This document shows positions 2,216 to 36,759 of a stretch of DNA of 37,383 nt, piece by piece (the stretch's first letter is position 1; every line of letters starts with the position of its first letter). The translations under genes and the position numbers were made by a program. Source of the DNA: a virus (taxonomy: Duplodnaviria; Heunggongvirae; Uroviricota; Caudoviricetes); the IMG/VR virus record IMGVR_UViG_2737471869_000016; one strand, given 5' to 3'. The notes beneath the pieces are model-generated. The model saw only the letters and a program-made list of their open reading frames with translations, made no database searches and was not told where the DNA came from.

Positions 2216-2415
2216 TTGCGTGGCTCCTGTACCTGTCGGATAAGATTCACCCGCGCCACGTTGGTGGCGCAGAAGTAAGTGCCGTCAGTGAGGTAGATGT
2301 GGTGTGCATCCTTTTCCGAACGATGTTTGTCGATAGTGGTAATCAGGCGTTCGTCGACCTCGTATTCGCGCCCTCTGGAGGTAAAGCGAATGACGGGAAA
2401 ATGCTTAATTGCCAT
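2212..2415 (-). CDS. Hypothetical protein (67 aa)
   Basis: ORF-track frame, tightly packed in minus-strand operon. Confidence 0.4.
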   Translation of the reverse strand: MAIKHFPVIRFTSRGREYEVDERLITTIDKHRSEKDAHHIYLTDGTYFCATNVARVNLIRQVQEPRK

Positions 2416-2438
2416 TGCGCCCCCTTTGTCCAGTAACC

Positions 2439-2855: not shown

Positions 2856-3057
2856 TTTATATCTCCGTTATTTGCGTGTGCGAATACCTCCGCGAATGCG
2901 GATAGTTTTCAGGTTTTCGGGTTTAATCTGGTGTTTTGTTTAAGCTGTTATTTGTCAGTGAAAAAGCGTTCAATCTTTTTTACTGAATGAATAATTCGCA
3001 TAATCCCAATGGCGCAGGCCACCGAAATAATCAGAACAAGCCATGAGATAAATATAC

Positions 3058-3300
3058 TCATGCGATATTCCCCAGCTTATACGGTTCAATGTGTTCCCCG
3101 CATTCTGCGGCACAGATCAGCTCGGAAAGTTCGTTCAGTGCATCCAGATCATCAGCGTAAAAAGCAACGTCATACAAACTCCGGATTGCCCTGGTCAATG
3201 AGTCACGGGCTGCATGTTCAGCATGAGCGCCTGATGCACTTAAGCGAAAATAAAATCGTTCAAGTGCTTTGTTAATGAGAGTTTTATATTCTTTGCCCAT
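3058..3300 (-). CDS. Hypothetical protein (80 aa)
   Basis: ORF-track frame; no motif recognised. Confidence 0.4.
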   Translation of the reverse strand: MGKEYKTLINKALERFYFRLSASGAHAEHAARDSLTRAIRSLYDVAFYADDLDALNELSELICAAECGEHIEPYKLGNIA

Positions 3301-4894: not shown

Positions 4895-5545
4895 ATGGCC
4901 GTCAACTCAAACGGTTCAAACAATCGCGTTGCAGGGCGTGATTTTCACGAAAAGAATATTCAGATAGAGCGATATGATGGTTCTCATACCGTCAATATCG
5001 CAATCCCTTCGAATAATGATGATGACGATCGCCCTTTGCTTAAGGCTCAGCGTAAGGAGCTAAATAGCTTGGTTGCTGCTATTGCAGAAGCTAGCAATAC
5101 TGAAGCGTTTATTATTTGGCAAAAAGTACATGCGGAGATTGGTGTAGCTGGTATTGATGATATGACAGTAAATCAATATAAAACAGCGGAGAGTTTTCTG
5201 CATGCAATGCTTGAGCGATGTAAAGATCATGATGCCTGTAAGGCTCTTGTAAGTTTATTACTACGTAACAGTGAAGACTGTGGACTTCGACAAAAACTTC
5301 TGCGGTATTGCCATATCAATTTCGGTACAGGACGTTTAAACGATCTTACTCGTTCTCAGTTACAGTCTGCATTGTCGTGGTTAGAGCAACAATCGGCATC
5401 AAGCCACACAGAGAGTTCGACCTTACCAGAAGTCCGACTACGTGCTTCAGAATTAATCCGACTTTATCCAAAAGAAATAATATTCTTTATCTGCGTAGGG
5501 GTTTTGGTAGGCGGTGTCATTTCTAGGGCGTTTTTTAATTTGTAA
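4895..5545 (+). CDS. Hypothetical protein with C-terminal hydrophobic segment (216 aa)
   Basis: ORF-track frame; C-terminus IIFFICVGVLVGGVISRAFF is a probable transmembrane helix. N-terminus repeats the motif NNRVAGRDFHE also found at the C-terminus of the preceding regulator. Confidence 0.55.
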   Translation: MAVNSNGSNNRVAGRDFHEKNIQIERYDGSHTVNIAIPSNNDDDDRPLLKAQRKELNSLVAAIAEASNTEAFIIWQKVHAEIGVAGIDDMTVNQYKTAESFLHAMLERCKDHDACKALVSLLLRNSEDCGLRQKLLRYCHINFGTGRLNDLTRSQLQSALSWLEQQSASSHTESSTLPEVRLRASELIRLYPKEIIFFICVGVLVGGVISRAFFNL

Positions 5546-5574
5546 TCTTACTTGAGCTAAATTGAGGTAATGAT

Positions 5575-5922
5575 ATGAAAGTAAAAAAGGTTCAACTATT
5601 AGTTACTTTTTTATCTATGTTTTCTTTTTCCGCCGTCGCAATGCCTTTTAAAACTATTGAACGTGAGAGTTTCAAGGGGGTATGGCCATTTAATACTGAT
5701 GAGGTTCAATTACAGTGTCTTGATGGTAATCCTTATGTGATGAATTTTGACGATAATAAGTTATATGCACTTACAGGTTTGGCTCGAATAAAAGGTAAAA
5801 CATTTGGTGCGTTACCGTTAGATAACAATAATCCATTTTGGCTAGATAATGATGCCGCCCCAGGGTTAAAAAAGAGTCTGGGGGATGTCACTAAGGCTGC
5901 ATTTGATTTATGTGATAAGTAA
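5575..5922 (+). CDS. Small secreted/periplasmic protein (115 aa)
   Basis: N-terminus MKVKKVQLLVTFLSMFSFSAVAMP looks like a signal peptide; SD-like sequence upstream. Confidence 0.6.
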   Translation: MKVKKVQLLVTFLSMFSFSAVAMPFKTIERESFKGVWPFNTDEVQLQCLDGNPYVMNFDDNKLYALTGLARIKGKTFGALPLDNNNPFWLDNDAAPGLKKSLGDVTKAAFDLCDK

Positions 5923-5927
5923 CTAAA

Positions 5928-6929
5928 ATGTCGGTTCGTAAGATTCCATCAGGTAAATGGCTTTGCGAATGTTATCCCTACGGGGCATCGGGAAAACGCA
6001 TTCGTAAACAGTTTGCGACAAAAAGTGAGGCGCTCTCTTATGAGCGCCGTTTAATGAATAGTAGAGTTGGAGACGAGTTTCAAGATGGTTCTGGTCCTCG
6101 TCTTTCTGAGTTGATTGCTCGTTGGTTTGAGATGTACGGTAAAACCTTGTCCTCTGGTGCAGAGCGCAAAGTCAAACTTGAGGCGATTTGTTCCAGGCTG
6201 GGAGATCCATTTGCTTCTCAGTTTGACAAAAATATGTTTGCTACTTATCGGGAAAGAAGGCTATCAGGAGAATGGAATCCCAAGGGGAAGAAAAAACTTA
6301 GTGAAGCAACCGTTAATCGCGAGCAGTCATATCTACATGCTGTTTTTGCCGAACTGAAGCGCCTTGGGGAGTGGTCTGGTGAAAACCCCCTGACTGGTAT
6401 TCGCAAGTTTCGTGAGGAAGAAAAGGAACTGGCGTTTCTGTATGTAGATGAGATTGAACGCCTTCTGATTGCGTGTGATGAGTCACGGAATAAAGATTTG
6501 GGGGTTGTTGTCCGTATTGGGCTTGCGACGGGTGCTCGGTGGAGTGAAGCAGAAGGATTAAAGCAATCTCAAGTACTGCCCGGTCGAATCACATTTGTTA
6601 AAACTAAAGGAAAGAAGAACCGCACTGTACCGATTTCACCTCAATTGCAGGCTATGCTTCCTAAAAAACGAGGAGCGCTATTTTCACCATGTTATGAGGC
6701 TTTTGACGCTGCAATTAAGAGAGCGAAGATCGAGCTTCCTGATGGGCAATTAACTCATGTGCTACGTCACACGTTTGCCAGTCATTTTATGATGCGGGGC
6801 GGAAATATTCTTGTGTTGCAAAAAATACTGGGGCATAGCGATATAAAAATGACTATGCGTTATGCGCATTTTGCTCCAGGTCATTTAGAGGCTGCTGTTG
6901 AATTGAACCCTTTTGACAATAGAGGGTAA
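5928..6929 (+). CDS. int: Tyrosine site-specific integrase, phage P2-like (333 aa)
   Basis: Catalytic-region motifs TGARWSEA, ITFVKTKGKKNRTVPIS, HVLRHTFASHFMMRGGNILVLQKILGH and MTMRYAHFAP (R..HxxR..Y). Recalled similarity to the phage P2 Int C-terminal region. Gene ends ~100 bp before the tRNA-Leu-derived att-like fragment. Confidence 0.9.
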   Translation: MSVRKIPSGKWLCECYPYGASGKRIRKQFATKSEALSYERRLMNSRVGDEFQDGSGPRLSELIARWFEMYGKTLSSGAERKVKLEAICSRLGDPFASQFDKNMFATYRERRLSGEWNPKGKKKLSEATVNREQSYLHAVFAELKRLGEWSGENPLTGIRKFREEEKELAFLYVDEIERLLIACDESRNKDLGVVVRIGLATGARWSEAEGLKQSQVLPGRITFVKTKGKKNRTVPISPQLQAMLPKKRGALFSPCYEAFDAAIKRAKIELPDGQLTHVLRHTFASHFMMRGGNILVLQKILGHSDIKMTMRYAHFAPGHLEAAVELNPFDNRG

Positions 6930-8122: not shown

Positions 8123-9355
8123 ATGATATCAATCAGATACATGAGGATAAATATGCAAAAATCCTTCCGATTCACCAATTCGTCCATCAAAGCCCTTCCG
8201 GCAAACACAGATACCAGATCTACAGAGCTTGAGGTATCTGATACCGAAGTTATTGGCCTCAAATGTCTCTCAGGTCGAACGGGTAACAAACGTTTCCTCC
8301 TGCGCTACACATTCCACGGTACCAAAAAAAGTATCAGTATTGGCAGATTCCCTGAAATTGATGTGGGGACAGCTCGCCAGATAGCTCGCCGTCATAAGGA
8401 GGCGATTGCACTTGGAAATGACCCCAAGGCAGAGCGCGATAATTATCGTGCGATGCCAACGCTTAGTGAGTTTTTTCACCAGACCTATGTTCCGTTCATC
8501 AAGCGCCATAAAAAGTCCTGGGATAAGGATGTTCAGCGTTTCACGCAATACATTGAACCTCGTCTGGGGAAGATACGTTACTGCGACCTTCGGGCCCGGG
8601 AAATCCAGCAGGTGCTTTTCGACATGCTTGAGGGTCGTATTCACGGCCAGCAGTATGCACCGTCTACCTGTAACAGGGCACTGGCTATTCTGAAAACTAT
8701 GGGGCGTTATGCGCTACGACAGGATGTCTTAGAGAAGAATGAAGCCGATAAGATCCCTTTGCTGAAGGAGAATAATCAGCGGACGCGCTTTTTTGACGCC
8801 GATGAGATCAGAAGGATCCTCGACGCTGCGGCACGATACCCCAATAAGGCCGCCGGGGGACTGATAGCCATGCTGCTGTTAACCGGTACACGCAAATCAG
8901 AAATGCTGAATGTCATGCACAAACATATTGATCGGGATAACAGGTCGTTATTCATTCCTTATACTAAGAATGGTCGCAGCAGAACTGTGTATCTCAGTGA
9001 TGTTGCATTATCCATTATTGATTCGATCCCACGGGCTGGCAGCAACCCCTATCTGTTTGCCGTAAAAGATAATGGAAAACCAATATCAGAACCCCGGTGG
9101 GCCTATGAAAAAATACTGGCAGAGTGCGGGATAGATAAAAGTGAAGTCTGTTTCCACACTACGCGCCATTCCGTCGCATCATTACTTGTCTCCAGCGGAC
9201 AGTACAGTCTGTATGACGTTAAAGCCCAGCTTGCGCATGCCAGTATTCAGAGTACGGAGCGCTACGCAAAACTGACACCAGAGCGAATGCGTCAGACCGG
9301 GCAGGGTGTTACCGACCTTCTTTTACCCCCCGTAGCTACCAGTAAAGAACAGTGA
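8123..9355 (+). CDS. int: Tyrosine site-specific integrase, P4-type with N-terminal arm-binding domain (~400 aa; likely start at the Met of MQKSFRFT, 8153)
   Basis: N-terminus FRFTNSSIKALPA (arm-type DNA-binding domain pattern), catalytic motifs LLLTGTRKSEM, HTTRHSVASLL, AHASIQSTERY. Confidence 0.9.
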   Translation: MISIRYMRINMQKSFRFTNSSIKALPANTDTRSTELEVSDTEVIGLKCLSGRTGNKRFLLRYTFHGTKKSISIGRFPEIDVGTARQIARRHKEAIALGNDPKAERDNYRAMPTLSEFFHQTYVPFIKRHKKSWDKDVQRFTQYIEPRLGKIRYCDLRAREIQQVLFDMLEGRIHGQQYAPSTCNRALAILKTMGRYALRQDVLEKNEADKIPLLKENNQRTRFFDADEIRRILDAAARYPNKAAGGLIAMLLLTGTRKSEMLNVMHKHIDRDNRSLFIPYTKNGRSRTVYLSDVALSIIDSIPRAGSNPYLFAVKDNGKPISEPRWAYEKILAECGIDKSEVCFHTTRHSVASLLVSSGQYSLYDVKAQLAHASIQSTERYAKLTPERMRQTGQGVTDLLLPPVATSKEQ

Positions 9356-12659: not shown

Positions 12660-13562
12660 TTACGGGGCGTTACTTGGCTGGGTGTAACGTTTCAGTGCGG
12701 ATTGTATATCTTCAGCAAGTTGTTGACGGATTGAGGCCGGTTGTATTACTTCGACATCCGGTATCCAGTATTTCATTAAAGGCATTATCTGATCTGTGTG
12801 TGTTACACGTGATATCACCAGTAAATCGCCAGACCGGGAAGTATGAATTATTTCCTGTCCTGGCAATAGATGACGGTGGGTAAACCACGGAGCAACATGT
12901 GCGGAAACTGAAATAAGAACTTCGATAAGGTCTTCGCTATACCAGATACCATCTGTCTTTTCTATTTTTTCATTAATTTCGGGGATTATCCTGAAAGAGA
13001 TATTACTCATGCAAACGTCTTTGACAGATGAGATAACAAAGCTTTTTAATGTACTGTCATGGGCGGCAGCGAGATACCACAATCCGTTGTCATTAACCAG
13101 TCTGTATGGCTCAACAGCCCGAAACTCTTTATCTTTGTAATTAAAATTTACTTTCTTCTGTGACAGGATGGCATCGGATAATACATTCAGAATTGACATG
13201 AATGATCCGCAGTTTTCGTATGGACGTTGTTTTATCAGAAACGGGTTGTTTTTCGTGTTACCTAACAAAATACTCAGTAGTCTGTCATCCCAGCGAGGGA
13301 ACAGCCCTTCAATACCCAGGATGCGCGTGAAATGACGTAAATCAGCATTGCTGCGTTGACCGAGAACACCGTCAGACAGGCGATAGCGACCATTTTGTCG
13401 AATCAGATTAAGATAGGACAGGCGCTGAGTAAGATCACGACGGATAGTTTTTTCGCAAACGTTAAATTCCTCAGATAACTCCCGGAAGGCTAGTGACTCA
13501 CCATTGTTCAGGCGAGTTAATATCAATCCGAGTCGATATCCAAGTTTATCGTGCTTACCCAT
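12660..13562 (-). CDS. WYL-domain transcriptional regulator (HTH + WYL), BrxR/CapW-like (300 aa)
   Basis: N-terminal HTH ([20 protein letters not shown]) and central WYL signature ([20 protein letters not shown]). Subfamily assignment is by analogy. Confidence 0.8.
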
Positions 13563-14316: not shown

Positions 14317-16980
14317 TCAGGCTGGAAGACAGAATGTCGGATATTTACGGGCTATGATATCCATCAGTGACTTCATTCGCGGTGTTACAGAACTAAATTT
14401 CATTTGGGGTATTTTTGCTCTTACCGCATTTTTTACATCAGTCACCGTTACTGAATAGCCTTCTGACGTCAGCCATTCAGCAACCTCTTTACAGGAATAA
14501 CTTTTTTTATCTTTCAGCATCAGCCCCCATTGGCACTGAGTCAGCGCCCGGAGAAATAGTCTGACTAAAATATCATCACTACGTTTGCTTCCGACTTTTA
14601 GTTTCATATCAGAAAACACCGTCCGGCAATAGAGAAAATCACACCAGTCATCCCAGTCAGCCAGGGTCTTCAGTGTATGCGTTTGCCGCCAGTCGTCGAA
14701 AAGAGAGCGTTGCTGCAGAGCCTCTTCCATATTATCCCATGGGCGGGAAAACATCAGTAAATGCCCTTCATTCATGGCGGGCTGTACGGGCTGGCGTTTG
14801 AAATCGAATTCCAGATTAAGACGGATATCCTGTTCCCGGGATACCAGATCGCTTTCCGACAGCCACATCTCACGCGTTGATATCAACGTACTTCGGGATA
14901 ACGTCTGACCGGGTAAACGATTAAGGTAAAGATCTACCATATAGTCGTTATAGTCACTGCGTGGAATATCGGCAGGAGGTTTGACGCCAGCCCTGGCATG
15001 AACAACAGGTTTTCCCTGAATAGCTCTATAGGTTAACTGCCCCCGGGTTTTCATGGCGATAAGCTGGCTGACTTCATGCTTACATGTCAACATTGATGAA
15101 CCCGGATCAACAATATCGCACAGCGACTGGAAGCGGGAAGACAGTGGACCGCTCATGTTTATCTTGTTAAGTGGGCAATTTGTCAAAAAGCCATCGGTTG
15201 TGACGCTGACAACCGATGAATCAGAAGGCAAAGCATTCATGAGTTCCCCGGCAACGGCGCGGATAAATCCCGTTACATGCGCAGCAAAGAATGGCTGAGT
15301 AACCGATGATGGCGGGAGGGATCTGTTTAATCCACGGGCAGTATCAAAGGCGGTTTTGGCGCGAAGGCCCTGAGCAAGTTTGCCATAAAGCGAGTTGCCA
15401 ATTTCTTTCCAGAATTTCTCCTCCAGAGAACCTTTAATATGGCGATTACGGTTCTCACGGACCTGTTGAACAAAGGGAAGAAACACCGATGTTGATTCGC
15501 TGTTATGTGGGGAGATGTCACAGATCCAGGGGACGATGATCCCATTATGGATCGTCATCTCTGCCCCGAGCGACAGAGCAAGTTCGATTTCAGGTGCCGT
15601 TGCCCATGATTCGCCACTTAATGGAAAGAATAACCCATATTGATCGGTCCGAACCGGCAGGCTGGGATAGGGAACTGATTCCGGGAACCGAAATGTGACA
15701 AGCGCAAATCCCATTACATGCCCACAGTAATCGTCCGGATTTTTACTGAGGCGGATGTTCCCGTAATCGGGTGTGAGGATATCTAATAGCCCGGTGGTAT
15801 ACGCTCCAGCCAGATCGTAGTCATACCAGTGATCAGACGGTGTAACCCCCATCATAAAACACTCATTGCGTCCGCCGTGGTAACAGTTGATCGGGAACGT
15901 TTCAAACAACTCTCTTGAAGGAACACTGGCGGGGTTTTTAATCGTCCGGAATGCCTGTTTTTCCGTGAGCCAGAGTTCACGGGTTTTAATGTGTGTCCCA
16001 AGGCAGACTTCAGGAGACATATTGTTTTCTTTAAGTGTTTTGGTGAACCGTGAAACTGCCATCGCCCCGATGGTGGCGGGGACACGATCAATCATCAGCT
16101 CCCGGGCGCAAAAATTGCGAACCTGTAAAGCATAACGAACCGCAATCTCGGCATCCCGCAGAGCATAGGCTTCAAACCCTGCTCTGTCGCCCAGAAGATA
16201 TTCACGCATATTGGTTATGGAATAAGGTGCAGGAATGGTGAGTTTGGGAAGACCCAGTAATTCACCACATTCAGCCAGACCCATACCCCCGGGAGTGATA
16301 AGCAGTGTATCGATGAAAGCTACGTTACTGCAACGCGGAGGGGAAGTTCGTTTGTCAAACATTATCTGTTCAGTCTTTACGCGACGTTCCTGCTGTTCAT
16401 CAAAATCGATACCGTAACGATTTTTGAAGCTGCTGACAGTACCGCGTATTCCTTTCAGAAGAATTTTGTAGTCTGACCAGAAATTGGCAAAGGAGGCGAT
16501 ATCCGCACGAATGAAATGCGCATATATATTAATAATACCGGGCCATTTTGTAATCACACCCGTTTCAAGAAGCGGTGTAATCGTTTGACAGAGAAATTCC
16601 TTAAAAGACAGCCGGGATTTTTTCTGTGAGTCAGGTGGATAGATAATGTTCGATATACCTGTATTATCGGGTAAGACAACATAACTCTGATATGACAGAA
16701 TATCATTCTGTCGTGTTTCAGGGTTGAAAACATATTCGGTATCAAAACCGATATGGAGCGTCAGGTCGTTTGAAATCACAGACACGTTTTTTGATGCAGG
16801 TGGCATCACAGGATAATCATCAAGCGTTTTAGGTCTTTTACGATTGAGCACTGGCTCTGAAGTCACGGACTGATACCCCGAGGCGGCAGCGAGGATATCC
16901 TGCAAATTATGGCTCATAGTTAACTCCGAAAAAATGCCGGGAGCTGTGTCCCGGCATAAAGAATCAAGATTTAATAACAT
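14317..16980 (-). CDS. Family-B DNA polymerase of the primer-independent type (piPolB), pipolin hallmark (887 aa in ORF track; likely start at internal Met 16917, RBS GGAG)
   Basis: PolB motifs read in the translation: Exo I IGFDTEYV (DxE), Exo III YALRDAEI (Yx3D), motif B KEIGNSLYGKLAQG (Kx3NSxYG), motif C-like VTTDGF, and AMKTRGQ, i.e. the KTRG motif that I recall replacing KxY in piPolBs. Neighbours are integrase and AlpA/Xis-like genes. Confidence 0.85.
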   Translation of the reverse strand: MLLNLDSLCRDTAPGIFSELTMSHNLQDILAAASGYQSVTSEPVLNRKRPKTLDDYPVMPPASKNVSVISNDLTLHIGFDTEYVFNPETRQNDILSYQSYVVLPDNTGISNIIYPPDSQKKSRLSFKEFLCQTITPLLETGVITKWPGIINIYAHFIRADIASFANFWSDYKILLKGIRGTVSSFKNRYGIDFDEQQERRVKTEQIMFDKRTSPPRCSNVAFIDTLLITPGGMGLAECGELLGLPKLTIPAPYSITNMREYLLGDRAGFEAYALRDAEIAVRYALQVRNFCARELMIDRVPATIGAMAVSRFTKTLKENNMSPEVCLGTHIKTRELWLTEKQAFRTIKNPASVPSRELFETFPINCYHGGRNECFMMGVTPSDHWYDYDLAGAYTTGLLDILTPDYGNIRLSKNPDDYCGHVMGFALVTFRFPESVPYPSLPVRTDQYGLFFPLSGESWATAPEIELALSLGAEMTIHNGIIVPWICDISPHNSESTSVFLPFVQQVRENRNRHIKGSLEEKFWKEIGNSLYGKLAQGLRAKTAFDTARGLNRSLPPSSVTQPFFAAHVTGFIRAVAGELMNALPSDSSVVSVTTDGFLTNCPLNKINMSGPLSSRFQSLCDIVDPGSSMLTCKHEVSQLIAMKTRGQLTYRAIQGKPVVHARAGVKPPADIPRSDYNDYMVDLYLNRLPGQTLSRSTLISTREMWLSESDLVSREQDIRLNLEFDFKRQPVQPAMNEGHLLMFSRPWDNMEEALQQRSLFDDWRQTHTLKTLADWDDWCDFLYCRTVFSDMKLKVGSKRSDDILVRLFLRALTQCQWGLMLKDKKSYSCKEVAEWLTSEGYSVTVTDVKNAVRAKIPQMKFSSVTPRMKSLMDIIARKYPTFCLPA

Positions 16981-17934: not shown

Positions 17935-19071
17935 TCATAGGTTCATTTTTGTGTCATAACTTTCTATGACCTGAGAAACCACTGCGTGTGATGTCGCTGC
18001 ATTGTGAAAAGCGTAGCGACGGGTCGCCGTGAGTGAATGGTGATTTAGCAGATGGGAAGCGATTGCAATATCCCCGGTCGCCTGTAGTACCCGGGTGGCA
18101 AAGGTACGGCGCAGGTCATGCATCCGCAGGTTATCAATGTTGGCATCCCGACAAATACGGGCAAAGGTTGCACGCGGATATGCCAGAGGGCGGGCATTGT
18201 CGGTTAGTTGTGGAAAAATGTAAGTTTTGCTGAGCATCAGGTCTTGCTGGCACTGGACAACTGCAATGGCTGGAGGTGCAAGTGGGCAGGTGAAAGGGTG
18301 TCCGGACTTTGTATCAGGCAGTATGAGTTGATGCATATCCGGGTGCCAGTACTCCCATTTCAGGGTACATACCTCACCAATACGCATCCCCGTATAAAGA
18401 GCAAGCAATATAGAATCAGCTGCCGGTGTTTGCAGCGCTGTTGCCGCGTCAATAAAGCGCGGGATTTCTGTCGCTGATAGTGTGCGATAGCGAATGTTAT
18501 TTTCTTTCAGATAGCGGACATGTGACATCGGGGAATGTGTGATCCATCCAGCACGTACTGCCAGAGAGCATATTTTGGACAATATTGCGAGGATACGGTT
18601 TACTGTTGACGGACGTAATTTTTCCCGTAAGCCAGCAGCATATTGTTCTAGTTCTCCTGCCGTGATGTCGCGAAGTTGCCGCTTGCCCCAGAACGGGCGA
18701 ACGTAGAGGTTGAGTTTTGACAACTCTGACTGAGGACTCTTTTTATACAACTGCAAATCCGGTAGCCACAGGTCATTGATGGCCTGTTCCACAGTGAATC
18801 GACGGGACTGAACCGCAAGACGATTTTTATCAGCAAGCAGTTTCATCACATGCTGACGGGCATCCTCAACGCAGAGCTGAGGGAACTGACCCAGGGTTTC
18901 ATATATACGCTGATTGTTTATAGTGGTACGAAAGGCCAGCGTGATCCGATTGGGATACACCAGAGCACGCAGGTTTTGGCAGTGAATATCACGGTATTCC
19001 TGACAACCCGTGAGGGGATGTGGAAGTTGGTGAATTGATTTGTTGCTGAAACGCAGATCCAGAATAGGCAT
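17935..19071 (-). CDS. int: Tyrosine site-specific integrase (378 aa)
   Basis: Catalytic motifs LALYTGMRIGEV, HDLRRTFATRVL, LLNHHSLTATRRY (R..HxxR..Y). Confidence 0.9.
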   Translation of the reverse strand: MPILDLRFSNKSIHQLPHPLTGCQEYRDIHCQNLRALVYPNRITLAFRTTINNQRIYETLGQFPQLCVEDARQHVMKLLADKNRLAVQSRRFTVEQAINDLWLPDLQLYKKSPQSELSKLNLYVRPFWGKRQLRDITAGELEQYAAGLREKLRPSTVNRILAILSKICSLAVRAGWITHSPMSHVRYLKENNIRYRTLSATEIPRFIDAATALQTPAADSILLALYTGMRIGEVCTLKWEYWHPDMHQLILPDTKSGHPFTCPLAPPAIAVVQCQQDLMLSKTYIFPQLTDNARPLAYPRATFARICRDANIDNLRMHDLRRTFATRVLQATGDIAIASHLLNHHSLTATRRYAFHNAATSHAVVSQVIESYDTKMNL

Positions 19072-23913: not shown

Positions 23914-25135
23914 AGGTTGGATGCTTAAACAGTTGTCGGATATTGTAAAAGAAAAAATATCTTATGGAATTGTTCAGGCGGGACCACATATTCCTAATGG
24001 AATACCTTATATAAAAAGCTCTGACATTAGAGGGGCTATTGATCCTGCGTCACTGCAGAGGACAGCGCCTGAAATACATTATAAGTACAGACGTTCAGCT
24101 GTGCACCCTGGGGATATTATATTCTCCTTGAGAGGCAACATTGGCGAGACAGCCATAGTGCCTTCTAATTTATTAGAAGCGAATTTAACGCAAGGTACAG
24201 CACGGATATCAGTATCTGGTGATCAATGTAATGAGTTTTACCATCAACAATTTGCGATGGATAAATTACGTAATTATATTAATTCCTTGAGCAAAGGGAG
24301 TACATTTAAGGAAATTTCACTAGAAGAGCTACGTAAAGTTAAAGTTCTGTGTGCCCCCCTTCCTGAACAAAAGAAAATTGCTCAAATCCTGTCCACCTGG
24401 GATAAGGCAATTACGGTGACGGAAAAGCTTCTCGTCAACAGCCAGCAGCAGAAAAAAGCCCTGATGCAGCAATTGCTTACCGGGAAAAAACGCCTGCTGG
24501 ATGAGAATGGGGTGAGGTTTAGCACGGAGTGGGAGTTTAAAAGAATAAGTGAAATAGCAACGCGAGTTCAACGTAAAAATGATGCTGCCGAACATCCTAT
24601 TTTAACAATATCATCTTTGTCCGGATTTGTCCGGCAGGATGAGCGTTATAGTCGTTATATGGCGGGAGAAAGTGTGAAAAATTATATCCTGCTTAAAAAA
24701 GGTGAGTTTGCATATAACAAAGGAAACTCAAAAACATACGAGTTCGGATGTATTTTTGACCTTGAAGCATATGAAGCAGGACTGGTACCCCATGTCTATG
24801 TTTGCTTTAGATTAAAAAATGGGCTCAGTCACCGTTATTTTAAATATTTATTTGAGGCTGATTATCTCAAGCCACAGTTAGGGGCGTTAGTTAATACTGG
24901 GGTCCGAAATAATGGTTTATTAAATATCAAACCGACAGAGTTTATGCAAACAAAAGTCCCTGTTCCATGTTTTGAAGAGCAGGAAAGCATCGCTGATATG
25001 TTATATAACTCCAGCAGGACGATACGTGTTCTTCAGGATAAACTCGCCTGCCTGAAAGACGAGAAAAAAGCCCTGATGCAACAGCTACTGACTGGCAAAC
25101 GTCGTGTTAAGGTCGATGAGGCGGTTGCCGTATGA
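23903..25135 (+). CDS. hsdS: Type I restriction-modification system, specificity subunit (410 aa)
   Basis: Duplicated conserved segments KKALMQQLLTGKKRL (central) and KKALMQQLLTGKRRV (C-terminal) separating two target-recognition domains; start overlaps hsdM stop. Confidence 0.9.
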   Translation: MVPKGWMLKQLSDIVKEKISYGIVQAGPHIPNGIPYIKSSDIRGAIDPASLQRTAPEIHYKYRRSAVHPGDIIFSLRGNIGETAIVPSNLLEANLTQGTARISVSGDQCNEFYHQQFAMDKLRNYINSLSKGSTFKEISLEELRKVKVLCAPLPEQKKIAQILSTWDKAITVTEKLLVNSQQQKKALMQQLLTGKKRLLDENGVRFSTEWEFKRISEIATRVQRKNDAAEHPILTISSLSGFVRQDERYSRYMAGESVKNYILLKKGEFAYNKGNSKTYEFGCIFDLEAYEAGLVPHVYVCFRLKNGLSHRYFKYLFEADYLKPQLGALVNTGVRNNGLLNIKPTEFMQTKVPVPCFEEQESIADMLYNSSRTIRVLQDKLACLKDEKKALMQQLLTGKRRVKVDEAVAV

Positions 25136-25815
25136 AACTGACGAAAAGCGGTCCACTGACTGACCGGGAAATCGACTGGCTGGAAGAAATATTAATGAAG
25201 TATGGAATGGATGATTCTGTACTCTGTTTCTCTGAGCTGGATGGATTGCTGACGGCGATTTTATCAGGTCCAAATATGGTTTCACCCAATATCTGGCTGA
25301 GTGCTATTTGGGGAGGAGGCGATTATCATCCGAAATGGTCATCTGAGAGAGAGATGGAGCGTTTTGTCAGTCTGTGTTTTCAGCATATGAACGATATCGC
25401 TGGTTGCCTTTATGACGCCCCTGAACTGTTTGAGCCGATTTTCAATGAGCGTGAGGTAAAGGGGGAAAAATATACCATTGTGGAAGAGTGGTGTTTTGGT
25501 TATATGAAAGGAAAGTCACTGGATGACTGGTCTGGTCTTCCCGGTGAGTTACGGCCTTCTCTGGAAGTGATCGCTCTTCATGGCGTGGAGAAGAATTTTC
25601 CTGTACTTGAGAAAATGACCGGAGAGCAGTTTGAGAAAAGTATTTCCCTTATTCAGCCTGCTGCACTGGCACTTTATCAGTACTGGTTGTCAGTGAGAAT
25701 GTCAGAGGCATCATCCCGGCCTGTTCCAGTGAAGGGGGCAGAAAACATGCCCGGGCGAAATGACCCGTGTCCGTGTGGCAGCGGTAAAAAATTTAAGAAG
25801 TGCTGTCTGCATTGA
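25132..25815 (+). CDS. YecA-like (UPF0149-type) protein with C-terminal SEC-C metal-binding motif (227 aa), embedded in the hsd operon
   Basis: C-terminal GRNDPCPCGSGKKFKKCCLH is a SEC-C zinc-binding motif; overall length and layout resemble E. coli YecA as I recall it; ATGA start/stop overlap with hsdS. Confidence 0.7.
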   Translation: MKLTKSGPLTDREIDWLEEILMKYGMDDSVLCFSELDGLLTAILSGPNMVSPNIWLSAIWGGGDYHPKWSSEREMERFVSLCFQHMNDIAGCLYDAPELFEPIFNEREVKGEKYTIVEEWCFGYMKGKSLDDWSGLPGELRPSLEVIALHGVEKNFPVLEKMTGEQFEKSISLIQPAALALYQYWLSVRMSEASSRPVPVKGAENMPGRNDPCPCGSGKKFKKCCLH

Positions 25816-29929: not shown

Positions 29930-31801
29930 TTGGTCAGTCTCGTTAATGCAGGGAGTATAATAATGAGTAAGTTAGATAATAAAATTGAAGCACGCCATCG
30001 TAATTTGTTTGATGTTCTAAATGCGCAAAAATATACCGTTGATTACTTTCAGCGCGAGTATAGCTGGGGTGAGAAACATATTGAAGAGTTGGTTACAGAC
30101 TTAACATCTGCGTTTCTCAATGAATACACAGTCGGTGATTCTCGGGAGCAGGGTGAAAACTACAATAATTATTACTTAGGACCATTTGTTGTGAGTAGTA
30201 AAGATGGAAAGCGGAGTATTATTGATGGTCAGCAACGACTGACTTCATTAACTTTATTTCTAATTTACCTCCATAATCTTCAGAAAGAACTTAAATATGA
30301 AGAGAAAATAGAATCAATGATTTTCTCCGAGCTACGTGGCAGCAAATCATTCAATATAGTAGTTGAAGACAGAATTCCTTGCATGGAAGCATTGTTTAAT
30401 TTTGGTAGCTATAGTTTAGTTGATGGGGATGATGAGTCAACCCATAACATGGTGGAGAGATATCAGAATATCACAGATGCTTTTCCTGATGAGTTAAAAG
30501 GTCAGGCTTTTCCTTTTTTTATCGACTGGCTTAAGTATAACGTTATTATGGTTGAGATAGTCGCCTATTCAGATGAAAACGCATATACCATCTTTGAGAC
30601 TATGAATGACCGAGGATTGAATCTTACTCCGTCCGAAATGCTTAAAGGTTTTTTACTTTCACGTTTTCATCAGGGAGATAAACGCCAAAAGGCAAATGAA
30701 CTCTGGAAAAAAGCGATGATGGATTTAAAAAGCTATGACAAAGATGAAGACCAACGTTTTTTCCAGTCATGGTTGCGTGCTCAATATGCTGATACAATAC
30801 GCCCGGGTAAAGCTGGTTCAAAAAATGAAGACTTTGAAAAAATAGGTACGCGTTTTCATAGCTGGGTTAGAGATAATCTTCAGGCGGTGGGATTGGACCC
30901 AGATAATGGTGAGACATTCGAACGATTTATACAAAAAAACTTTTTGTTTTATTTGAATGCCTATACACAAATACTGAATGCTGAGAGAGTATTAACGCAC
31001 CAACTGGAATATGTATTTTATATCCACCATTGGGGTATTGCACCTACTTTAAGTTTCCCTTTGATGTTGGCTCCATTAAATGTAGATGACAGTCCTGAGG
31101 CTGTGAAAGCCAAAATAAACCTAGTGGCTCGCTATATTGAAACGTTTGTTGTTCGTCGTTCTGTTAATTTCCGAAAATTCTCTGCCAGTTCTATTCGTTA
31201 CACAATGTACAGTCTTGTTAAAGAGATTCGTGGTAAAAGTTTTGAAGAATTAAAAGATTTATTATCTAAGAAGTTATCCGAAATGCCAGATACTTTTGCA
31301 GGAATGGAAGAGTTTCGTCTCCATGGTCAAAACCATCGTTTTGTGAAGTTTTTGCTTTCTCGTATAACTGCGTGGGTTGAGCAACAAGCCGGAATGAGTA
31401 CAACCTTCATTACATATTATCAGCCAGAACACGGTAAGCCATTTGAAGTCGAGCATATTTGGGCCGATAAATATGAACGTTACTCTGATGAGTTTGAACA
31501 AGAGCACGAATTTAACAATTACAGAAATCGCTTAGGTGATTTGGTTTTATTACCTAGAGGCTCAAACCAGTCATATGGTGATTTGTGTTACGATCAAAAG
31601 CAACCTCATTACATCAAAGAGAATCTCCTGGCTAAATCGTTATGCCCATTGGCATATATGAATAACCCTAATTTCAATCAGTTGAGAAATGTATTCGGAT
31701 TGCCTTTCAAACCACATGATTCATTTAAAAAACAAGATGTCGATGAACGACAGTCTTTGTATAAAATAATTTGTGAGAATATTTGGGACCATAATTTATA
31801 G
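29930..31801 (+). CDS. DUF262/DUF1524 two-domain protein, GmrSD-like putative type IV (modification-dependent) restriction endonuclease (likely start at 29963)
   Basis: N-terminal DUF262/ParB-like motif QREYSW...IIDGQQRLTSL; C-terminal His-Me-finger-like region EVEHIWADKYE ... GDLVLLPRGSNQSYG. Internal Met (MSKLDNK) has a GGGAG SD. Confidence 0.75.
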   Translation: MVSLVNAGSIIMSKLDNKIEARHRNLFDVLNAQKYTVDYFQREYSWGEKHIEELVTDLTSAFLNEYTVGDSREQGENYNNYYLGPFVVSSKDGKRSIIDGQQRLTSLTLFLIYLHNLQKELKYEEKIESMIFSELRGSKSFNIVVEDRIPCMEALFNFGSYSLVDGDDESTHNMVERYQNITDAFPDELKGQAFPFFIDWLKYNVIMVEIVAYSDENAYTIFETMNDRGLNLTPSEMLKGFLLSRFHQGDKRQKANELWKKAMMDLKSYDKDEDQRFFQSWLRAQYADTIRPGKAGSKNEDFEKIGTRFHSWVRDNLQAVGLDPDNGETFERFIQKNFLFYLNAYTQILNAERVLTHQLEYVFYIHHWGIAPTLSFPLMLAPLNVDDSPEAVKAKINLVARYIETFVVRRSVNFRKFSASSIRYTMYSLVKEIRGKSFEELKDLLSKKLSEMPDTFAGMEEFRLHGQNHRFVKFLLSRITAWVEQQAGMSTTFITYYQPEHGKPFEVEHIWADKYERYSDEFEQEHEFNNYRNRLGDLVLLPRGSNQSYGDLCYDQKQPHYIKENLLAKSLCPLAYMNNPNFNQLRNVFGLPFKPHDSFKKQDVDERQSLYKIICENIWDHNL

Positions 31802-31859
31802 CAAAGTTGGGGTGTTAATTAATGTGTAATGGCATCATGATTTTTAAAAGGAGGTTGAA

Positions 31860-32987
31860 TTGCGTTCTGAAACGTTTTTTGTCAAATTTATTGAACAACT
31901 GAAAGGTATTTCGGTTGAGGATGATGTTGAATTCAATTTTTTTGAATTGGGTGGTTCCGGATATCTCGAAAATCCAACTACGGATTTGATGGCTTTGTTT
32001 ATGGGAGCCCAGAAAATGGTGCCGCCATGGTTGCTAAAAGCATTGTTATGTTGCCTGGATGATTCCCTCGATGTTGATGAAATTGATTTCACCTCTCTGG
32101 AATTAATGAGAGAGGCCAGAACAGAGGATGGGAAATATCTTGATATTCTTATCAGACATGATGAATTCATCATAGGTATTGAGCATAAAGTTTTGGCTGA
32201 TACATATAATCCTTTTCCCAGCTATGTAAGTCTCATTGATAGTTACGGCGGCAACAATCAAAATCTATTTCGCTGTATATTAAAGCCTGACGGTAACAGT
32301 GCTAAAGGCGTAGACGGTTGGCAACTGATCAATTATTCATTGCTGCTGGAAACCGCCATTCGACGTCTGGGGTTGGAGATGATGAATCAAGAGTTCAGCA
32401 AGTGGACTGTTTTTTATCAGGAGTTTTTAAGTCATCTTAAAAAATTGAGTGAGGTTAGTATGGATAAGGTATCTGATAAAAATGTGGAGTTTGTCACTGA
32501 AAATTTCTCAGCTTTGATAAAATCGGTTCAACTGCTGGAAATGTACCAAAATGCTATCACCGAGGAAGCTAAATCGGTTGTCTCAGAGGTATTGCCTGAT
32601 ATTCATATTGCAACAGGTATTAATAACTGGAAGGGTTACTATAAAGCAATTCATCTGATGCCGGGATGCTGGGGGCAAGGTAAAACAGGAATTACGTTAG
32701 TTTATCGCCCTTCAGAGGATGGACGAGATGAAGCTGAGTTCTACGTATATGGATGGATACATTCAGATGATTACCCTGAAATTAATGCACTAAAAGAAGA
32801 AATACGAGTTGCTTTAAGTGCTGGTGATTTCATTCCAACCGCTAGCTCTGAGGACTACGAAGTATCAATTACTGGGAAGGGGAAAGTGCTTGAACTGAGT
32901 TTTTGGGGGAACACCAGAAGCAAAAAAGATGCACTGGTTCTTCTTAAGGATATGACGGAGTGGATGGACTCAAAAATAAGAACATAA
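31860..32987 (+). CDS. Putative PD-(D/E)xK nuclease-fold protein (375 aa), TTG start
   Basis: Segment YLDILIRHDEFIIGIEHK fits the D-x(n)-E-x-K pattern; strong SD AAAGGAGG 5 nt upstream of a TTG start; AT-rich gene. Confidence 0.5.
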   Translation: MRSETFFVKFIEQLKGISVEDDVEFNFFELGGSGYLENPTTDLMALFMGAQKMVPPWLLKALLCCLDDSLDVDEIDFTSLELMREARTEDGKYLDILIRHDEFIIGIEHKVLADTYNPFPSYVSLIDSYGGNNQNLFRCILKPDGNSAKGVDGWQLINYSLLLETAIRRLGLEMMNQEFSKWTVFYQEFLSHLKKLSEVSMDKVSDKNVEFVTENFSALIKSVQLLEMYQNAITEEAKSVVSEVLPDIHIATGINNWKGYYKAIHLMPGCWGQGKTGITLVYRPSEDGRDEAEFYVYGWIHSDDYPEINALKEEIRVALSAGDFIPTASSEDYEVSITGKGKVLELSFWGNTRSKKDALVLLKDMTEWMDSKIRT

Positions 32988-33091
32988 ATTAATATGACTG
33001 CGTTATGATGATCTTTTTTAAATTGTGGATTATTAGGCACGAAATTAAAGTGTCGAATAGTCAGATATTGGAATAAAAGGAGAATATTCAA

Positions 33092-34270
33092 ATGATTTAT
33101 CAGTGTGATATTTGCAGTAGAACGACTTTTGAGGTTAATTGTCCCTGGTGTAGTGGAGTTTCGCCTGTAAAAACGTCTGCATGGGGTTCAGCATCATCGA
33201 CCGCACAAGCAATAGGCATACAACGTATGACACCATTGAATCCATCGTTTTATCCCGAATTTCAGTATCGTTCAAAGGGTGTTCTAAAAGATCTATTTGG
33301 GAAAAAGAAAGAGCAAACTCAGCTTAATCAATTGCTTGAAAATGTTCTCAAAAAATACTCCAGTTTAAAAGATCCATATTTTACTAACTTCATTTACACT
33401 TCCAGATTCTCACATAATAATAAATCGGAAGCAGATTACTCAACAGATAATGGTACATACTCCGAATTACAACTTTTCCGTGAGGTGTTGGTCAGAAAAG
33501 GGTTCAATGAGCTTGAGGAGTTACCTGAGCTATTAGATAAATTACTCCTTACCACGTCATTTAACGCTCTTTATTATGGTTTCGCTAAGGAAGTTAAACG
33601 GCATATTAAATCTACACTTACTGAATCCTTGAAGTCATGGATTGAGGAAGCGGGTACCACTTTTCGGGCAGATCTTTCATTATTTCTATTCTATATATGG
33701 AGTAATAATATAGAGTTCTCATCAGTAGAATTCAATGAAAAAGCGGAGACCACACCTGGTGTCCCTTTGGTTTTATTTGATGAAGTTAAAAAATATTTGG
33801 CTGTGTGCGAACGTATTTATTTTGATATTCTGGTTGATAGGTTAGCTACACGCCTTGAGCATTTTAACCCTAATAAATTCGTCACCATGTATTTAGTTGA
33901 TGCAATGGACGGTTTCCAGTTCGAAGATTTCCTTGTGGAAATATTCCAGACTATGGGTTATGACGTCAAAGAAACCAAAAGAACGCAAGATCAGGGTGCA
34001 GATCTTTTCGTCACTCGATTTGGTAAGGATATGGTTATTCAGGCGAAAAATTATTCTGGTTCTGTAGGTAACTCGGCGGTGCAGCAGGTGATCTCTGCTA
34101 AAACGTTCTATGGTTGTGATGAGGCGATGGTTGTGACTAATTCTTACTTCACACGCTCTGCTAAAGAGTTAGCTGAGTCAGCCTTGGTACGTCTGATCGA
34201 TAGGGATGAACTGCAAAAGTATCTGGATGATTACAATCAGAAGATAATCGAAGATTTCCAGTCAAACTAG
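33092..34270 (+). CDS. Zinc-ribbon + Mrr-like (Mrr_cat) restriction-endonuclease-domain protein (392 aa)
   Basis: N-terminal CDICS...CPWCS zinc ribbon; C-terminal region GADLFVTRFGKDMVIQAKNYSGSVGNSAVQQVISAKTFYGCDEAMVVTNSYFTRSAKELAE matches the Mrr catalytic domain pattern (D...QxK). Confidence 0.7.
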   Translation: MIYQCDICSRTTFEVNCPWCSGVSPVKTSAWGSASSTAQAIGIQRMTPLNPSFYPEFQYRSKGVLKDLFGKKKEQTQLNQLLENVLKKYSSLKDPYFTNFIYTSRFSHNNKSEADYSTDNGTYSELQLFREVLVRKGFNELEELPELLDKLLLTTSFNALYYGFAKEVKRHIKSTLTESLKSWIEEAGTTFRADLSLFLFYIWSNNIEFSSVEFNEKAETTPGVPLVLFDEVKKYLAVCERIYFDILVDRLATRLEHFNPNKFVTMYLVDAMDGFQFEDFLVEIFQTMGYDVKETKRTQDQGADLFVTRFGKDMVIQAKNYSGSVGNSAVQQVISAKTFYGCDEAMVVTNSYFTRSAKELAESALVRLIDRDELQKYLDDYNQKIIEDFQSN

Positions 34271-34301
34271 TAACTTTGCAGTCATATAAATATAGCAAAG
34301 G

Positions 34302-34337
34302 ACAGGTAGGCCTCCGTGAGAGGGGGGACTTACCTGT
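34302..34337 (+). terminator. Possible terminator hairpin after the Mrr-like gene
   Basis: ACAGGTAGG-(~18 nt)-CTTACCTGT imperfect inverted repeat followed by GTTGTTCTG (weak U-tract). Confidence 0.3.
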
Positions 34338-34581
34338 GTTGTTCTGAGGTGAGTAAAGCACTTCTGCTCAGGTGGCCAAATTCAGTAACCACTTCATTCA
34401 TATGAGACCTAATGGCCTAGTCATCTAGCCAGAAAGCCATTGAGCCAAGGTTCAGAAGGGCTTTTTGTAAGTGTGCCAATTGGTGGCTCTGAACTTCTGG
34501 TATACTACATGACTGCATGTGTTGTCAGCAAATGCTTTAACAGGTCCTTCAGCTCAGCAAAAGCTCGATTTTTTCATCAAA

Positions 34582-34665: not shown

Positions 34666-36759
34666 TTGCATTTCCGCGGGTGTGGTTTACAAGGAAAGGC
34701 TGTCAGCATGCATCGCTCTGTTTCTAAGTTTTATCGCATCCCCCCTTTACTTATTCGGGCGCTAAAAAGCGGGGTCGCCTCCGTGGTGGAGTTTCATCTC
34801 AGCAAGGGATTGCCGAAAGATTCACGAGATTCTCTGGGAAATAGCCCATTGATGATTGCGGCCCAGAATGGGCATTTCGCTCTTTGCGAAATGTTGTTGT
34901 GTGCGGGTGTCGATGTTGAGCATCAAAACAACCTCGGGTTTCGCGCCAGTGACCTCGCGCAGGAGCAAACGCTGCGTGATCTGTTAGCTCGTTATCGGCA
35001 ATCTCCTCCGCCTGACGGGCAGCAACTAGCAGGGGGGCTAGATGATGAGGCAAACGTTGAGCTTGTAATTGAAGCCGATGTCGAAACAGAACCTCCCGAA
35101 ACCGAAGACGCAATGGATTTTATGCAGTGGGATGCTGAAATCGAATCGGAACCCGCCGAAGATAATCTGACATTACGACAGGCTTCCGCTGAGGCTCAGC
35201 AATTATTATCCCGCTATCGCCCGATAGATAACGCTGCTGAGTGGATCGATATAGAACTCTCCCTTCCTGACCCGCCGACGCCAGTTTCTAACTCTCCGCA
35301 AAATTATCCCCATTTCTCAACGTTGCTCACTAGCGCACTGGATGTCGGTCGTATCTCTGTTCGTGACATTCGGTCTGCCGGGGAAGATGATTTCGGCATG
35401 CCGTGGCCTGAATTCCGGCTCAGCGTAGAGGCATTGATCAAGGACTTACCTTTGATTGTGGATGGCGATGATGCTTTCCCGGAAAGTGATGCCTTTGGGG
35501 AATTAGCGGCGAGTGATGTTCTCGAGCCCTGGTTTGACGCTTTCGGTGCATTGCGGCAGTCCGGCATCTTTGAACGTTATCTTGTGGACATTCGCCAATG
35601 GGATGTCGTCGATAAAACAAAGGAAGAGCGACTCGGGCAGCGCATGGATACGGCGCTTATCAACTTGATGACGATCCTGGCGAGATTACCCGAAGCAAAA
35701 TATCTACAGTTGCTGCATCCGAATTGCCTTCCCGCGACATCGCCTGAGATTACTGAAGAGGATGACGACGCGGAAGAAGCGGATGAGGAAATCTCTTCCG
35801 CAGCCGATGACGATGACGCCATCACCTTTAACGATCTGCTCATTCTGCTGAGAAGTGGGAAAGCTGAAGAGTACCAGGATAATCATATCCCTCGCCCGGA
35901 GTACCGTGACCTGCAGCAGATAGTCGAGCGCGCCCAAACGCTCATCCCTGATGAATGCCATAATGTCAGTCTGTATGTCAGTAGTTACAGAGACGCATGG
36001 AAGGGGTTTATCCACGCCAATTTACGTCTTGTGGTCGCGATTGCGAAAAAACACTGCGGGCGAGGATTAGATATCGAGGACCTGATCCAGGAAGGTAATC
36101 TGGGATTGATCAAGGCCGTTGAAAAATTCGACTATCGGCGTGGATTCAAATTCTCTACCTATGCCTCCTGGTGGATCCGCCAGAAGATCAGCCGCGCGAT
36201 TGCCGATCAGGCTCAGCTCATTCGTTTACCCGTTCACTTCTATGAGCATTTCAGGCGCTGGCGGAGCAGTCGGGATCAGTTGCTGCATCGCCAAGGGATA
36301 ACGCCCACCCTCAGACGGTTGCAGGAAATGACCGACCTGCCAGAGCGTCAACTTCTTCAGATGGCTAAATATGAAGAACAGACGGTGCTGATTGGTGATT
36401 TTCATGAAGACGCTCAGGACCGCGAAGCAGCATTGTCGGGAGACGCGCTGCTGACCAGAAGGGATTTCACCAGTGCTCCCGTTCAGTCTCTGGAGCTAAG
36501 AGAACATATTTCATCGGTCCTGAATACGCTGTTGCCACGCGAAACACAGATCATAAAAATGCGTTTTGGCATCGGTATGACGCAAGATTTCACGCTGGAA
36601 GAGGTGGGTAAACAGTTTGATGTCACGCGAGAAAGGATACGTCAGATAGAAGCCAAAGCACTCCGTAAGCTCCGTCATCACAGCCGGGCGTCGAAATTAG
36701 GCGGCTTCGTCGAACAGTGGGAAACCGCGTTGAGCGAGATGCAGGAAGAAGAAGAATGA
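34666..36759 (+). CDS. Sigma-70 family (RpoD-like) sigma factor with N-terminal ankyrin repeat(s) and an acidic linker (likely start at 34708)
   Basis: Ankyrin-repeat signature [31 protein letters not shown]; acidic tract [12 protein letters not shown]; sigma region 2 [29 protein letters not shown]; region 4.2 [40 protein letters not shown], closely resembling RpoD region 4 as I recall it. Confidence 0.8.

Follow-up and report, generated by a model that had tools for sequence, protein, structure and literature searches.

Two nuclease-like genes can lie side by side in a genomic island either as the parts of one system or as independent enzymes that share a location. This question is raised by a DNA stretch of 37,383 nucleotides (IMG/VR record IMGVR_UViG_2737471869_000016, filed under Caudoviricetes), which is referred to here as the window. 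An earlier note on this DNA had described a pair of AT-rich nuclease-like genes at positions 31,860 to 34,270, and had suggested that they are either two independent restriction-like enzymes or a two-component system. The two genes are designated here as gene A and gene B. In this study, we found that the window is a chromosomal pipolin of E. coli and that each of the two genes occurs in nature in the absence of the other. These results make it likely that A and B are separate nuclease modules of one gene each, both autonomous and housed in the exchangeable defence cargo of the pipolin, and not one system.

Gene models of A and B

The two genes and their ribosome binding sites are as follows.

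31860-32987, plus strand: gene A, 375 aa, TTG start; PD-(D/E)XK nuclease (PDDEXK_4), PADLOC candidate family PDC-S26
33092-34270, plus strand: gene B, 392 aa, ATG start; zinc ribbon, linker, helical domain and Mrr_cat nuclease
31849-31854, plus strand: Shine-Dalgarno sequence AGGAGG of gene A, 5 nt ahead of the TTG, read from the sequence
33077-33082, plus strand: Shine-Dalgarno sequence AAGGAG of gene B, 9 nt ahead of the ATG, read from the sequence

The list of open reading frames (ORFs) and the coding sequences of RefSeq/PGAP agreed on these two consecutive genes. In E. coli genomes identical to the window, RefSeq/PGAP annotates gene A as WP_001255892.1, "PD-(D/E)XK nuclease family protein", and gene B as WP_000640254.1, "restriction endonuclease". 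The TTG start of gene A with its strong Shine-Dalgarno sequence, as proposed in the earlier note, was borne out: PGAP uses the same start, and the homologues begin in the same alignment column. The genes are AT-rich as described, with a GC content of 0.394 for gene A and 0.383 for gene B. The upstream DUF262 gene has a GC content of 0.367, and the values for hsdR and mzaA in the same window are 0.496 and 0.516, respectively. Homologues of gene B are 45-66% identical across phyla, and full-length homologues of gene A were found down to about 30% identity. A and B are therefore real genes under purifying selection rather than chance ORFs.

Gene A and gene B occur without each other

The association of the two genes was examined in 61 genomic loci that carried a full-length gene B with at least 1.5 kb of flank on each side. 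Gene A was adjacent in 8 of these loci, in all of which gene B was at least 95% identical. It was absent from the other 53, in which gene B was 45-94% identical. Metagenomic loci centred on gene A were examined as well. Gene B was present in 10/10 loci in which gene A was at least 94% identical, and in 0/15 loci in which gene A was less than 60% identical. Among the individual loci, gene B homologues stood alone in Pseudomonas, Paraburkholderia and Klebsiella, and gene A homologues stood alone among unrelated neighbours in Pectobacterium, Burkholderia, Dickeya, Kluyvera and Pantoea. No gene family recurred beside gene B across taxa. Thus, the two genes were not conserved together across the divergence of either family.

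Loss of either partner was also observed in closely related islands. In Atlantibacter (locus L020) and Enterobacter (locus L074), the stop codon of the DUF262 gene is followed by a 48-nt spacer and then by gene B, without gene A. This spacer follows the window up to ...TAATGGCAT and then passes directly into the Shine-Dalgarno sequence and ATG of gene B. Since the DUF262 gene abuts gene B in these two loci, gene A is a clean indel and an optional cassette with the following approximate limits.

31839-33075, plus strand: "gene A cassette", the block present or absent between the DUF262 gene and gene B

In E. coli AH21, gene A is intact and gene B is replaced by ISKpn26. In E. coli C21 and its relatives, gene A is split by a deletion and gene B is intact. 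As a genome observation, and not as a fitness test, the loss of either partner is tolerated.

An obligate two-gene system, consisting of a sensor (A, or the N-terminal domain of B) with the other nuclease as effector, or of a toxin-antitoxin-like pair, would agree with the arrangement of the genes, which share a strand and are separated by 104 nt, the terminator scan predicting no terminator in between. It would also agree with the A-B block being kept, at 87-100% identity, in three separate settings. However, co-occurrence is limited to one shallow lineage, the partner being missing in 53/61 loci of gene B and 15/15 loci of diverged gene A. Gene A is a clean indel, and natural knock-outs of either gene persist beside an intact partner. 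In addition, the two proteins share no similarity, and each has a complete catalytic site. The two-component system was rejected on the co-occurrence counts and the natural knock-outs in both directions, and an obligate pair in any form is highly improbable. The possibility that A and B are paralogues was rejected because there is no sequence similarity between them. Between the two options of the earlier note, the independent enzymes stood and the two-component system did not. The result speaks clearly against the two-component system that had been suggested, and it illustrates that defence islands stack autonomous nuclease cassettes that can resemble operonic systems.

The inheritance of A and B as a block speaks for some tie between them. 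The block, including the spacer of about 104 nt, was inherited together in several contexts, the pipolin being one of them. A CBASS-flanked block of Enterobacter kobei (locus L092, 1-7413) has 89% identity in A and 93% in B, and another contig carries a block with 94% in A and 87% in B. Some modest functional, co-selected benefit of the pairing may thus exist. In the stronger form of this idea, A and B are independent in origin and are co-selected for complementary or layered protection in Enterobacteriaceae, like embedded back-up systems. The recurrence of the block in the pipolin and in the CBASS-flanked locus fits this idea, pipolin-cargo defence genes have been reported to be exchanged as blocks (PMC11551731), and a back-up logic is documented for PrrC with EcoprrI (cited in bioRxiv 10.1101/2024.01.29.577857). 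However, simple linkage in a recombining island predicts block inheritance equally, and gene A is dispensable in otherwise identical islands. Linkage in the recombining island explains the recurrence of the block, and co-selection appears unlikely.

Two of the loci had further features. Immediately upstream of the Enterobacter kobei block are a type II CBASS operon (SMODS cyclase, E1/E2 ThiF, JAB, 2TM-SAVED) and a 245-aa gene of unknown function. In a Kluyvera locus (L093), two PDC-S26 paralogues (2051-3178 and 5001-6128) lie 1.8 kb apart and are 98% and 78% identical to gene A. The island copy, which is accompanied by gene B, stands there beside a resident chromosomal copy. The resident copy is found alone in other Kluyvera near uvrC/pgsA.

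Gene A encodes an ordinary PDC-S26 protein with an intact active site

Gene A matched PF14281 (PDDEXK_4) of Pfam at E=4.8e-13 and 49.9 bits (cutoff 22.3) over aa 25-166. The residues E37, R84, E85, D95, E108 and K110 were invariant in 43 homologues down to 29% identity. Structure prediction, which the earlier note had proposed as a check, was performed with AlphaFold2 (AF2) for both A and B, and both models showed the restriction-endonuclease fold. The model of gene A had a mean predicted local distance difference test score (pLDDT) of 86 and consisted of a nuclease core, a helical linker and a C-terminal alpha/beta domain.

31974-32384, plus strand: nuclease core of gene A, aa 39-175, alpha-beta-beta-beta-alpha-beta
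32142-32189, plus strand: catalytic D95...E108-x-K110 of gene A
32595-32984, plus strand: C-terminal alpha/beta domain of gene A, aa 246-375, the least conserved part

The catalytic (E)...D...(D/E)xK residues lie on an alpha-beta-beta-beta-alpha-beta core, as defined for PD-(D/E)XK nucleases. The nuclease motif that had been pointed out in this 375-aa protein is therefore present, with a corrected spacing of D95-x12-E108-x-K110 instead of x13. The C-terminal half of the protein had no meaningful Pfam match even at E<=10, and the profile of the gene A family had no hit among PDB sequences. Its C-terminal domain resembles protein-binding or dimerising modules. NCBIfam has a model for neither the gene A nor the gene B protein.

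The best family assignment of gene A came from PADLOC. The model PDLC04981 (PDC-S26) matched at 7.6e-50, with aa 8-299 aligned to positions 8-294 of 358 (about 80% of the model), and five further PDC-S26 models also matched (six altogether). PDC-S26 is a single-gene "phage defence candidate" of PADLOC-DB v2, and gene A is an ordinary member of it, with no structural difference. As the family definition requires, gene A behaves as a single-gene unit in diverse contexts, with no obligatory partner. A previous report placed PDC-S26 in a set of 145 candidates, all untested, that were obtained by "guilt-by-embedding" (Payne et al. bioRxiv 10.1101/2024.01.29.577857). Since the family is itself a prediction, membership carries no information on mechanism. 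Two related proteins appear in the supplementary tables of DefensePredictor, each in only one of the tables searched. Table S10 (PMC13092281) labels WP_001255895.1, the gene A fragment of the C21 annotation, as "Predicted novel defense gene", and WP_001774910.1, a 375-aa PDDEXK_4 protein of an ECOR strain, bears the same label in table S5.

Gene A thus has an intact E...D-x12-E-x-K endonuclease, followed by a helical linker and then by an alpha/beta domain that varies more. This C-terminal domain would set the choice of target, or would hold the nuclease off until a trigger arrives. As an already catalogued candidate, gene A adds little that is new.

Gene B carries an Mrr-type nuclease behind a family-specific N-terminal region

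Gene B matched PF04471 (Mrr_cat) of Pfam at 4.2e-30 and 104.7 bits over aa 270-377. Its residues E278, D304, Q317 and K319 were invariant in 39 homologues and aligned with E172, D203, Q219 and K221 of EcoKMrr. Gene B therefore has the Mrr_cat domain with the D...QxK active site that characterizes the Mrr family. The four cysteines of its N-terminal ribbon, C5, C8, C17 and C20, were invariant in the same 39 homologues. These results confirmed the N-terminal CxxC...CxxC and the C-terminal Mrr-type domain that had been read from the DNA. The protein is divided as follows.

33092-33157, plus strand: zinc ribbon of gene B, aa 1-22, C5-x2-C8...C17-x2-C20
33158-33226, plus strand: variable, probably disordered linker of gene B, aa 23-45
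33227-33877, plus strand: family-specific helical domain of gene B, aa 46-262
33899-34222, plus strand: Mrr_cat nuclease of gene B, aa 270-377, with catalytic E278, D304 and Q317-x-K319

The linker differs in length between homologues and has a pLDDT below 50 at aa 23-43. In the sampled set, its mean identity was 0.14, against 0.65-0.84 elsewhere in the protein. The mean identity to the window protein was 65-67% in the helical domain and 84% in the nuclease. Distant relatives (26-39% identity) keep the ribbon or have it partly eroded, and they keep the PL(D/N)PxxYPxFxY and PYFxNF motifs. The AF2 model of gene B had a mean pLDDT of 74. The long helices at aa 145-169, 176-204 and 229-256 fell in 10-residue blocks with mean values of 66-95, and the blocks at aa 161-250 had values of 83-95.

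The earlier note had left the long N-terminal region of gene B unassigned, and it stayed so in searches of Pfam, NCBIfam, PADLOC and PDB sequences. Against Pfam, aa 1-265 had nothing below E=0.07, all matches were under their own cutoffs, and a scan at E<=10 was equally meaningless. The helical domain was unmatched in NCBIfam and PADLOC, and the profile of the gene B family had no hit among PDB sequences. We also searched for proteins that share this region. An exhaustive phmmer search with aa 1-265 returned no more than 48 representative clusters, and Mrr_cat was present in all of the full-length ones that were tested. A profile search with diverged members returned 219 clusters; the best 120 were all of the same length class, and 119/120 had a precomputed Mrr_cat. 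The idea that the N-terminal domain is fused to other effectors was rejected, since the full-length clusters checked (among the 48, and among the best 120 of 219) carry Mrr_cat. The architecture of gene B is, at the level of sequence comparison, closed and family-specific.

Two short proteins, P0187 and P0214 (237-243 aa), consist of the ribbon and helical domain only and end where the Mrr domain would start. They are possibly split versions of the gene B family, or truncated genes or contigs.

Distribution of the gene B family

The gene B family comprised 404 homologue clusters. Members of the family were found in Enterobacteria, Pseudomonas and Burkholderiales, and in metagenome-assembled genomes of Planctomycetota, Anaerolineae, Bipolaricaulota and Bacillota (Eubacteriales). 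Among complete E. coli genomes, gene B was present in 244/5426 (about 4.5%) and gene A in 215/5426, and gene B was also present in many Klebsiella contigs. On plasmids, gene B was found on one Burkholderia megaplasmid, and gene A occurred only as distant relatives of 24-32% identity. No full-length homologue of either gene was found in phage genomes.

Relation of gene B to known nuclease systems

We compared gene B with the systems that share its nuclease domain. In its overall plan, gene B resembles enzymes in which a recognition module is joined to an Mrr-type nuclease. EcoKMrr, the Type IV methyl-directed restriction enzyme of E. coli K-12, has the Mrr_cat domain, the aligned E/D/QxK residues and the solitary state, with no cognate methylase, in common with gene B. 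However, BLASTP aligned the catalytic part only, with 26% identity over 96 residues. The N-terminal DNA-binding domain of EcoKMrr, a defining part of the Mrr family, is absent from gene B, which has instead the 4-Cys ribbon and a helical domain of about 215 aa without known relatives. Gene B was therefore rejected as an Mrr orthologue, the nuclease domain alone being common. The modification-dependent Type IIM/IV enzymes AspBHI and MspJI are among the closest structural relatives of the gene B nuclease domain. The recognition module of these enzymes is a beta-rich SRA-like domain, whereas gene B has a helical module, and the alignment extends over no more than about 140 residues.

PDC-S02, the C-terminus of ZorD and mREase_IV of PADLOC share the Mrr-like nuclease domain with gene B (E 1.8e-21 to 1e-7). 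On the side of gene B, the matches were confined to aa ~256-391, and on the side of the models they took up at most the C-terminal third. Gene B had no counterpart of the initial ~184 positions of PDC-S02, of the SNF2 helicase in ZorD or of mREase_IV positions 1-414. Membership of gene B in any of the three was rejected, as there was no full-length match and the likeness is domain sharing only. Gene B also scored 58.6 bits (cutoff 27) with NA-iREase1 (PF22722, NACHT-associated inactive restriction endonuclease), which is below its score for Mrr_cat. This assignment was rejected as well, because the catalytic residues are intact and invariant, and neither the 97 flanking genes nor the loci inspected individually included a NACHT.

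In the literature, the protein accessions of A and B were absent from the main texts. A search on Mrr, zinc ribbon and anti-phage function found only papers on CoCoNuT, with no description of the gene B family, and the parts searched of the DefensePredictor supplementary tables gave no gene B entry. Current DefenseFinder probably labels gene B as Type IV on the Mrr domain alone. Gene A is already a catalogued candidate, and the gene B family is undescribed in the papers and library models found. A possible but less likely reading is that gene B founds an undescribed single-protein nuclease family that has spread horizontally and in which the invariant ribbon and the strongly conserved helical domain, which has no relation to known modified-base readers, control the Mrr-type nuclease.

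Proposed action of A and B

A and B are horizontally mobile, and from their domains and context they are probably anti-phage or anti-MGE (mobile genetic element) modules. Both would cut nucleic acid and thereby exclude phages or other mobile DNA. In the preferred view, gene B would be a solitary Type IV-like endonuclease. Its zinc ribbon and helical domain would recognise a feature of foreign DNA, either a modification or a structure, and its Mrr domain would then cut the recognised DNA. Gene B is a lone gene without a methylase, an antitoxin or a conserved neighbour, it is strongly conserved over its whole length across phyla, and its nuclease is related to EcoKMrr, MspJI and AspBHI. For these reasons, we infer that gene B would spare host DNA intrinsically.

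The main rival for gene B is an abortive-infection effector. The ribbon and helical domain would restrain the Mrr nuclease until a phage-derived protein or nucleic acid binds, and indiscriminate degradation of DNA would follow. This is plausible since the N-terminal domain is unlike known base readers, and a solitary gene with no immunity partner agrees with it. Many single-protein defence nucleases with extra domains have been validated in E. coli (PMC13092281 and its preprint). However, sensors of phage proteins usually diversify, and the N-terminal domain of gene B is 55-67% identical from Enterobacteria to Burkholderiales. In addition, the closest structural relatives of its nuclease include the modification-dependent AspBHI and MspJI. 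On balance, we regard the abortive-infection effector as a plausible but doubtful explanation, and the Type IV-like endonuclease is preferred.

Several observations weigh against the interpretation of A and B as autonomous defence nucleases, and of gene B as a Type IV-like enzyme. The nuclease activity and the defence role of both proteins are inferred from domains and context, and the literature search turned up no experiment on either protein. In other taxa, the neighbours of gene B are only occasionally defence genes and are mostly housekeeping genes. The 97 neighbours included 3 OLD/Gabija-like ATPases, 3 FRG/PDC-S15 proteins and 2 integrases. With so few defence neighbours elsewhere, guilt by association for gene B comes mainly from the enterobacterial island. 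The AF2 model of gene B is moderate, with a pLDDT below 60 over most of aa 21-120. The N-terminal domain, which is all-helical in this model, differs from known modified-base readers, and this weakens the Type IV reading.

If the N-terminal module of gene B senses a new signal, such as a structural feature of DNA, a modification not met before or a conserved cue of infection, it would represent a new recognition principle in Type IV-like immunity. Gene B is a useful lead in this respect, being compact (about 390 aa) and well conserved, and its N-terminal part could serve as a new source of specificity for Mrr-type nucleases. Gene B may also shape the host range of phages or plasmids in the E. 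coli and Klebsiella that carry it.

The pipolin and its cargo

E. coli chromosomes matched the window with 100% identity, the site being the yecA/tyrP hotspot. The window contains a piPolB gene, tyrosine recombinases and a cargo module, the parts that define a pipolin.

14317-16980, minus strand: ORF for a primer-independent PolB-like protein, 887 aa, with FDTEY, NSLYGK and VTTDG motifs and no Pfam hit
12660-13562 (minus strand), 5928-6929, 8123-9355 and 17935-19071 (minus strand): WYL/WCX regulator and three tyrosine recombinases

We take the FDTEY (ExoI), NSLYGK and TTD-type VTTDG motifs of the 887-aa ORF to be typical of piPolB. No tRNA or att site was found inside the window. The cargo genes run in one direction, in the order hsdM, hsdS, a YecA-like gene, hsdR, an M48/YgjP peptidase gene, the DUF262 gene, A, B and mzaA. 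A survey of pipolins described a matching cargo repertoire, and PDC-S26 is one of the defence systems that it names as frequent in enterobacterial pipolins (PMC11551731).

Since both genes ride on mobile DNA, A and/or B might serve the mobile element, through exclusion of competitors, maintenance of the island or pipolin-linked DNA processing, and not the immunity of the host. The same survey found PDC-S26 to be an exception among the frequent pipolin defence systems in that it was not enriched in recently exchanged genes (PMC11551731), and this might point to a closer link with the element. However, both A and B are found outside pipolins in unrelated contexts, and both are optional within pipolins. 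Service to the element is accordingly improbable, and the reading of A and B as autonomous modules of the defence cargo is retained.

Other features of the cargo are listed below.

25132-25815: YecA-like UPF0149/SEC-C gene; PADLOC PDC-S12 3.9e-99, NCBIfam PRK10396
29149-29904: M48/YgjP-like metallopeptidase gene, its start overlapping the hsdR stop (hsdR end 29152) by 4 nt
29930-31801: GmrSD-like DUF262/DUF1524 gene; best matches are HEC-06 models of PADLOC
34302-34337, plus strand: stable, GC-rich hairpin 32 nt after the gene B stop, from RNA folding
34666-36759: mzaA, for a sigma-70-type factor that bears ankyrin repeats at its N-terminus; score above the NCBIfam equivalog cutoff for MzaA

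The YecA-like gene lies inside the type I restriction-modification system, with hsdS on one side and hsdR on the other, and the host yecA lies just outside the island. In all related islands examined, the M48/YgjP gene comes after hsdR, a position that suggests a conserved accessory of this type I system. Phage defence by the HEC-06 family, to which the DUF262 gene is closest, has been shown experimentally (Payne et al. bioRxiv 10.1101/2024.01.29.577857). The slot upstream of gene A holds the DUF262 gene or, in other islands, an unrelated 163-aa ORF (locus L016, 6174-6665).

Scans of the A-B region for Rfam families, tRNAs and terminators found nothing. Folding of the RNA of 34268-34365 (98 nt) gave -34.3 kcal/mol with z = -3.3. 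The terminator scan did not flag the hairpin in this segment, which has no clean T-run. The hairpin is conserved 3' of gene B in strain C21, where gene B is the last gene of the island, and so it probably ends or stabilises the gene B transcript. Gene B is flanked by the two arms of an inverted repeat of 17 nt (88% complementary), at 32985-33001 and 34278-34294. The left arm starts at the stop codon of gene A, and the right arm lies 8 nt past the stop of gene B. The repeat was judged not meaningful, given the rough chance expectation in 3 kb of AT-rich DNA and the lack of the left-arm spacer in the Atlantibacter and Enterobacter loci described above.

The mzaA gene opens an MZA system that continues beyond the end of the window. 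In strain C21 (locus L098, 6193-6624), the whole MZA module is absent, which makes it another optional cassette. Between gene B and yecA of this strain, some few hundred nt past gene B, there is a sequence like the 3' end of a tRNA (...GGTTCAAGTCCCGCTCCGGGTACCA), presumably of tRNA-Leu.

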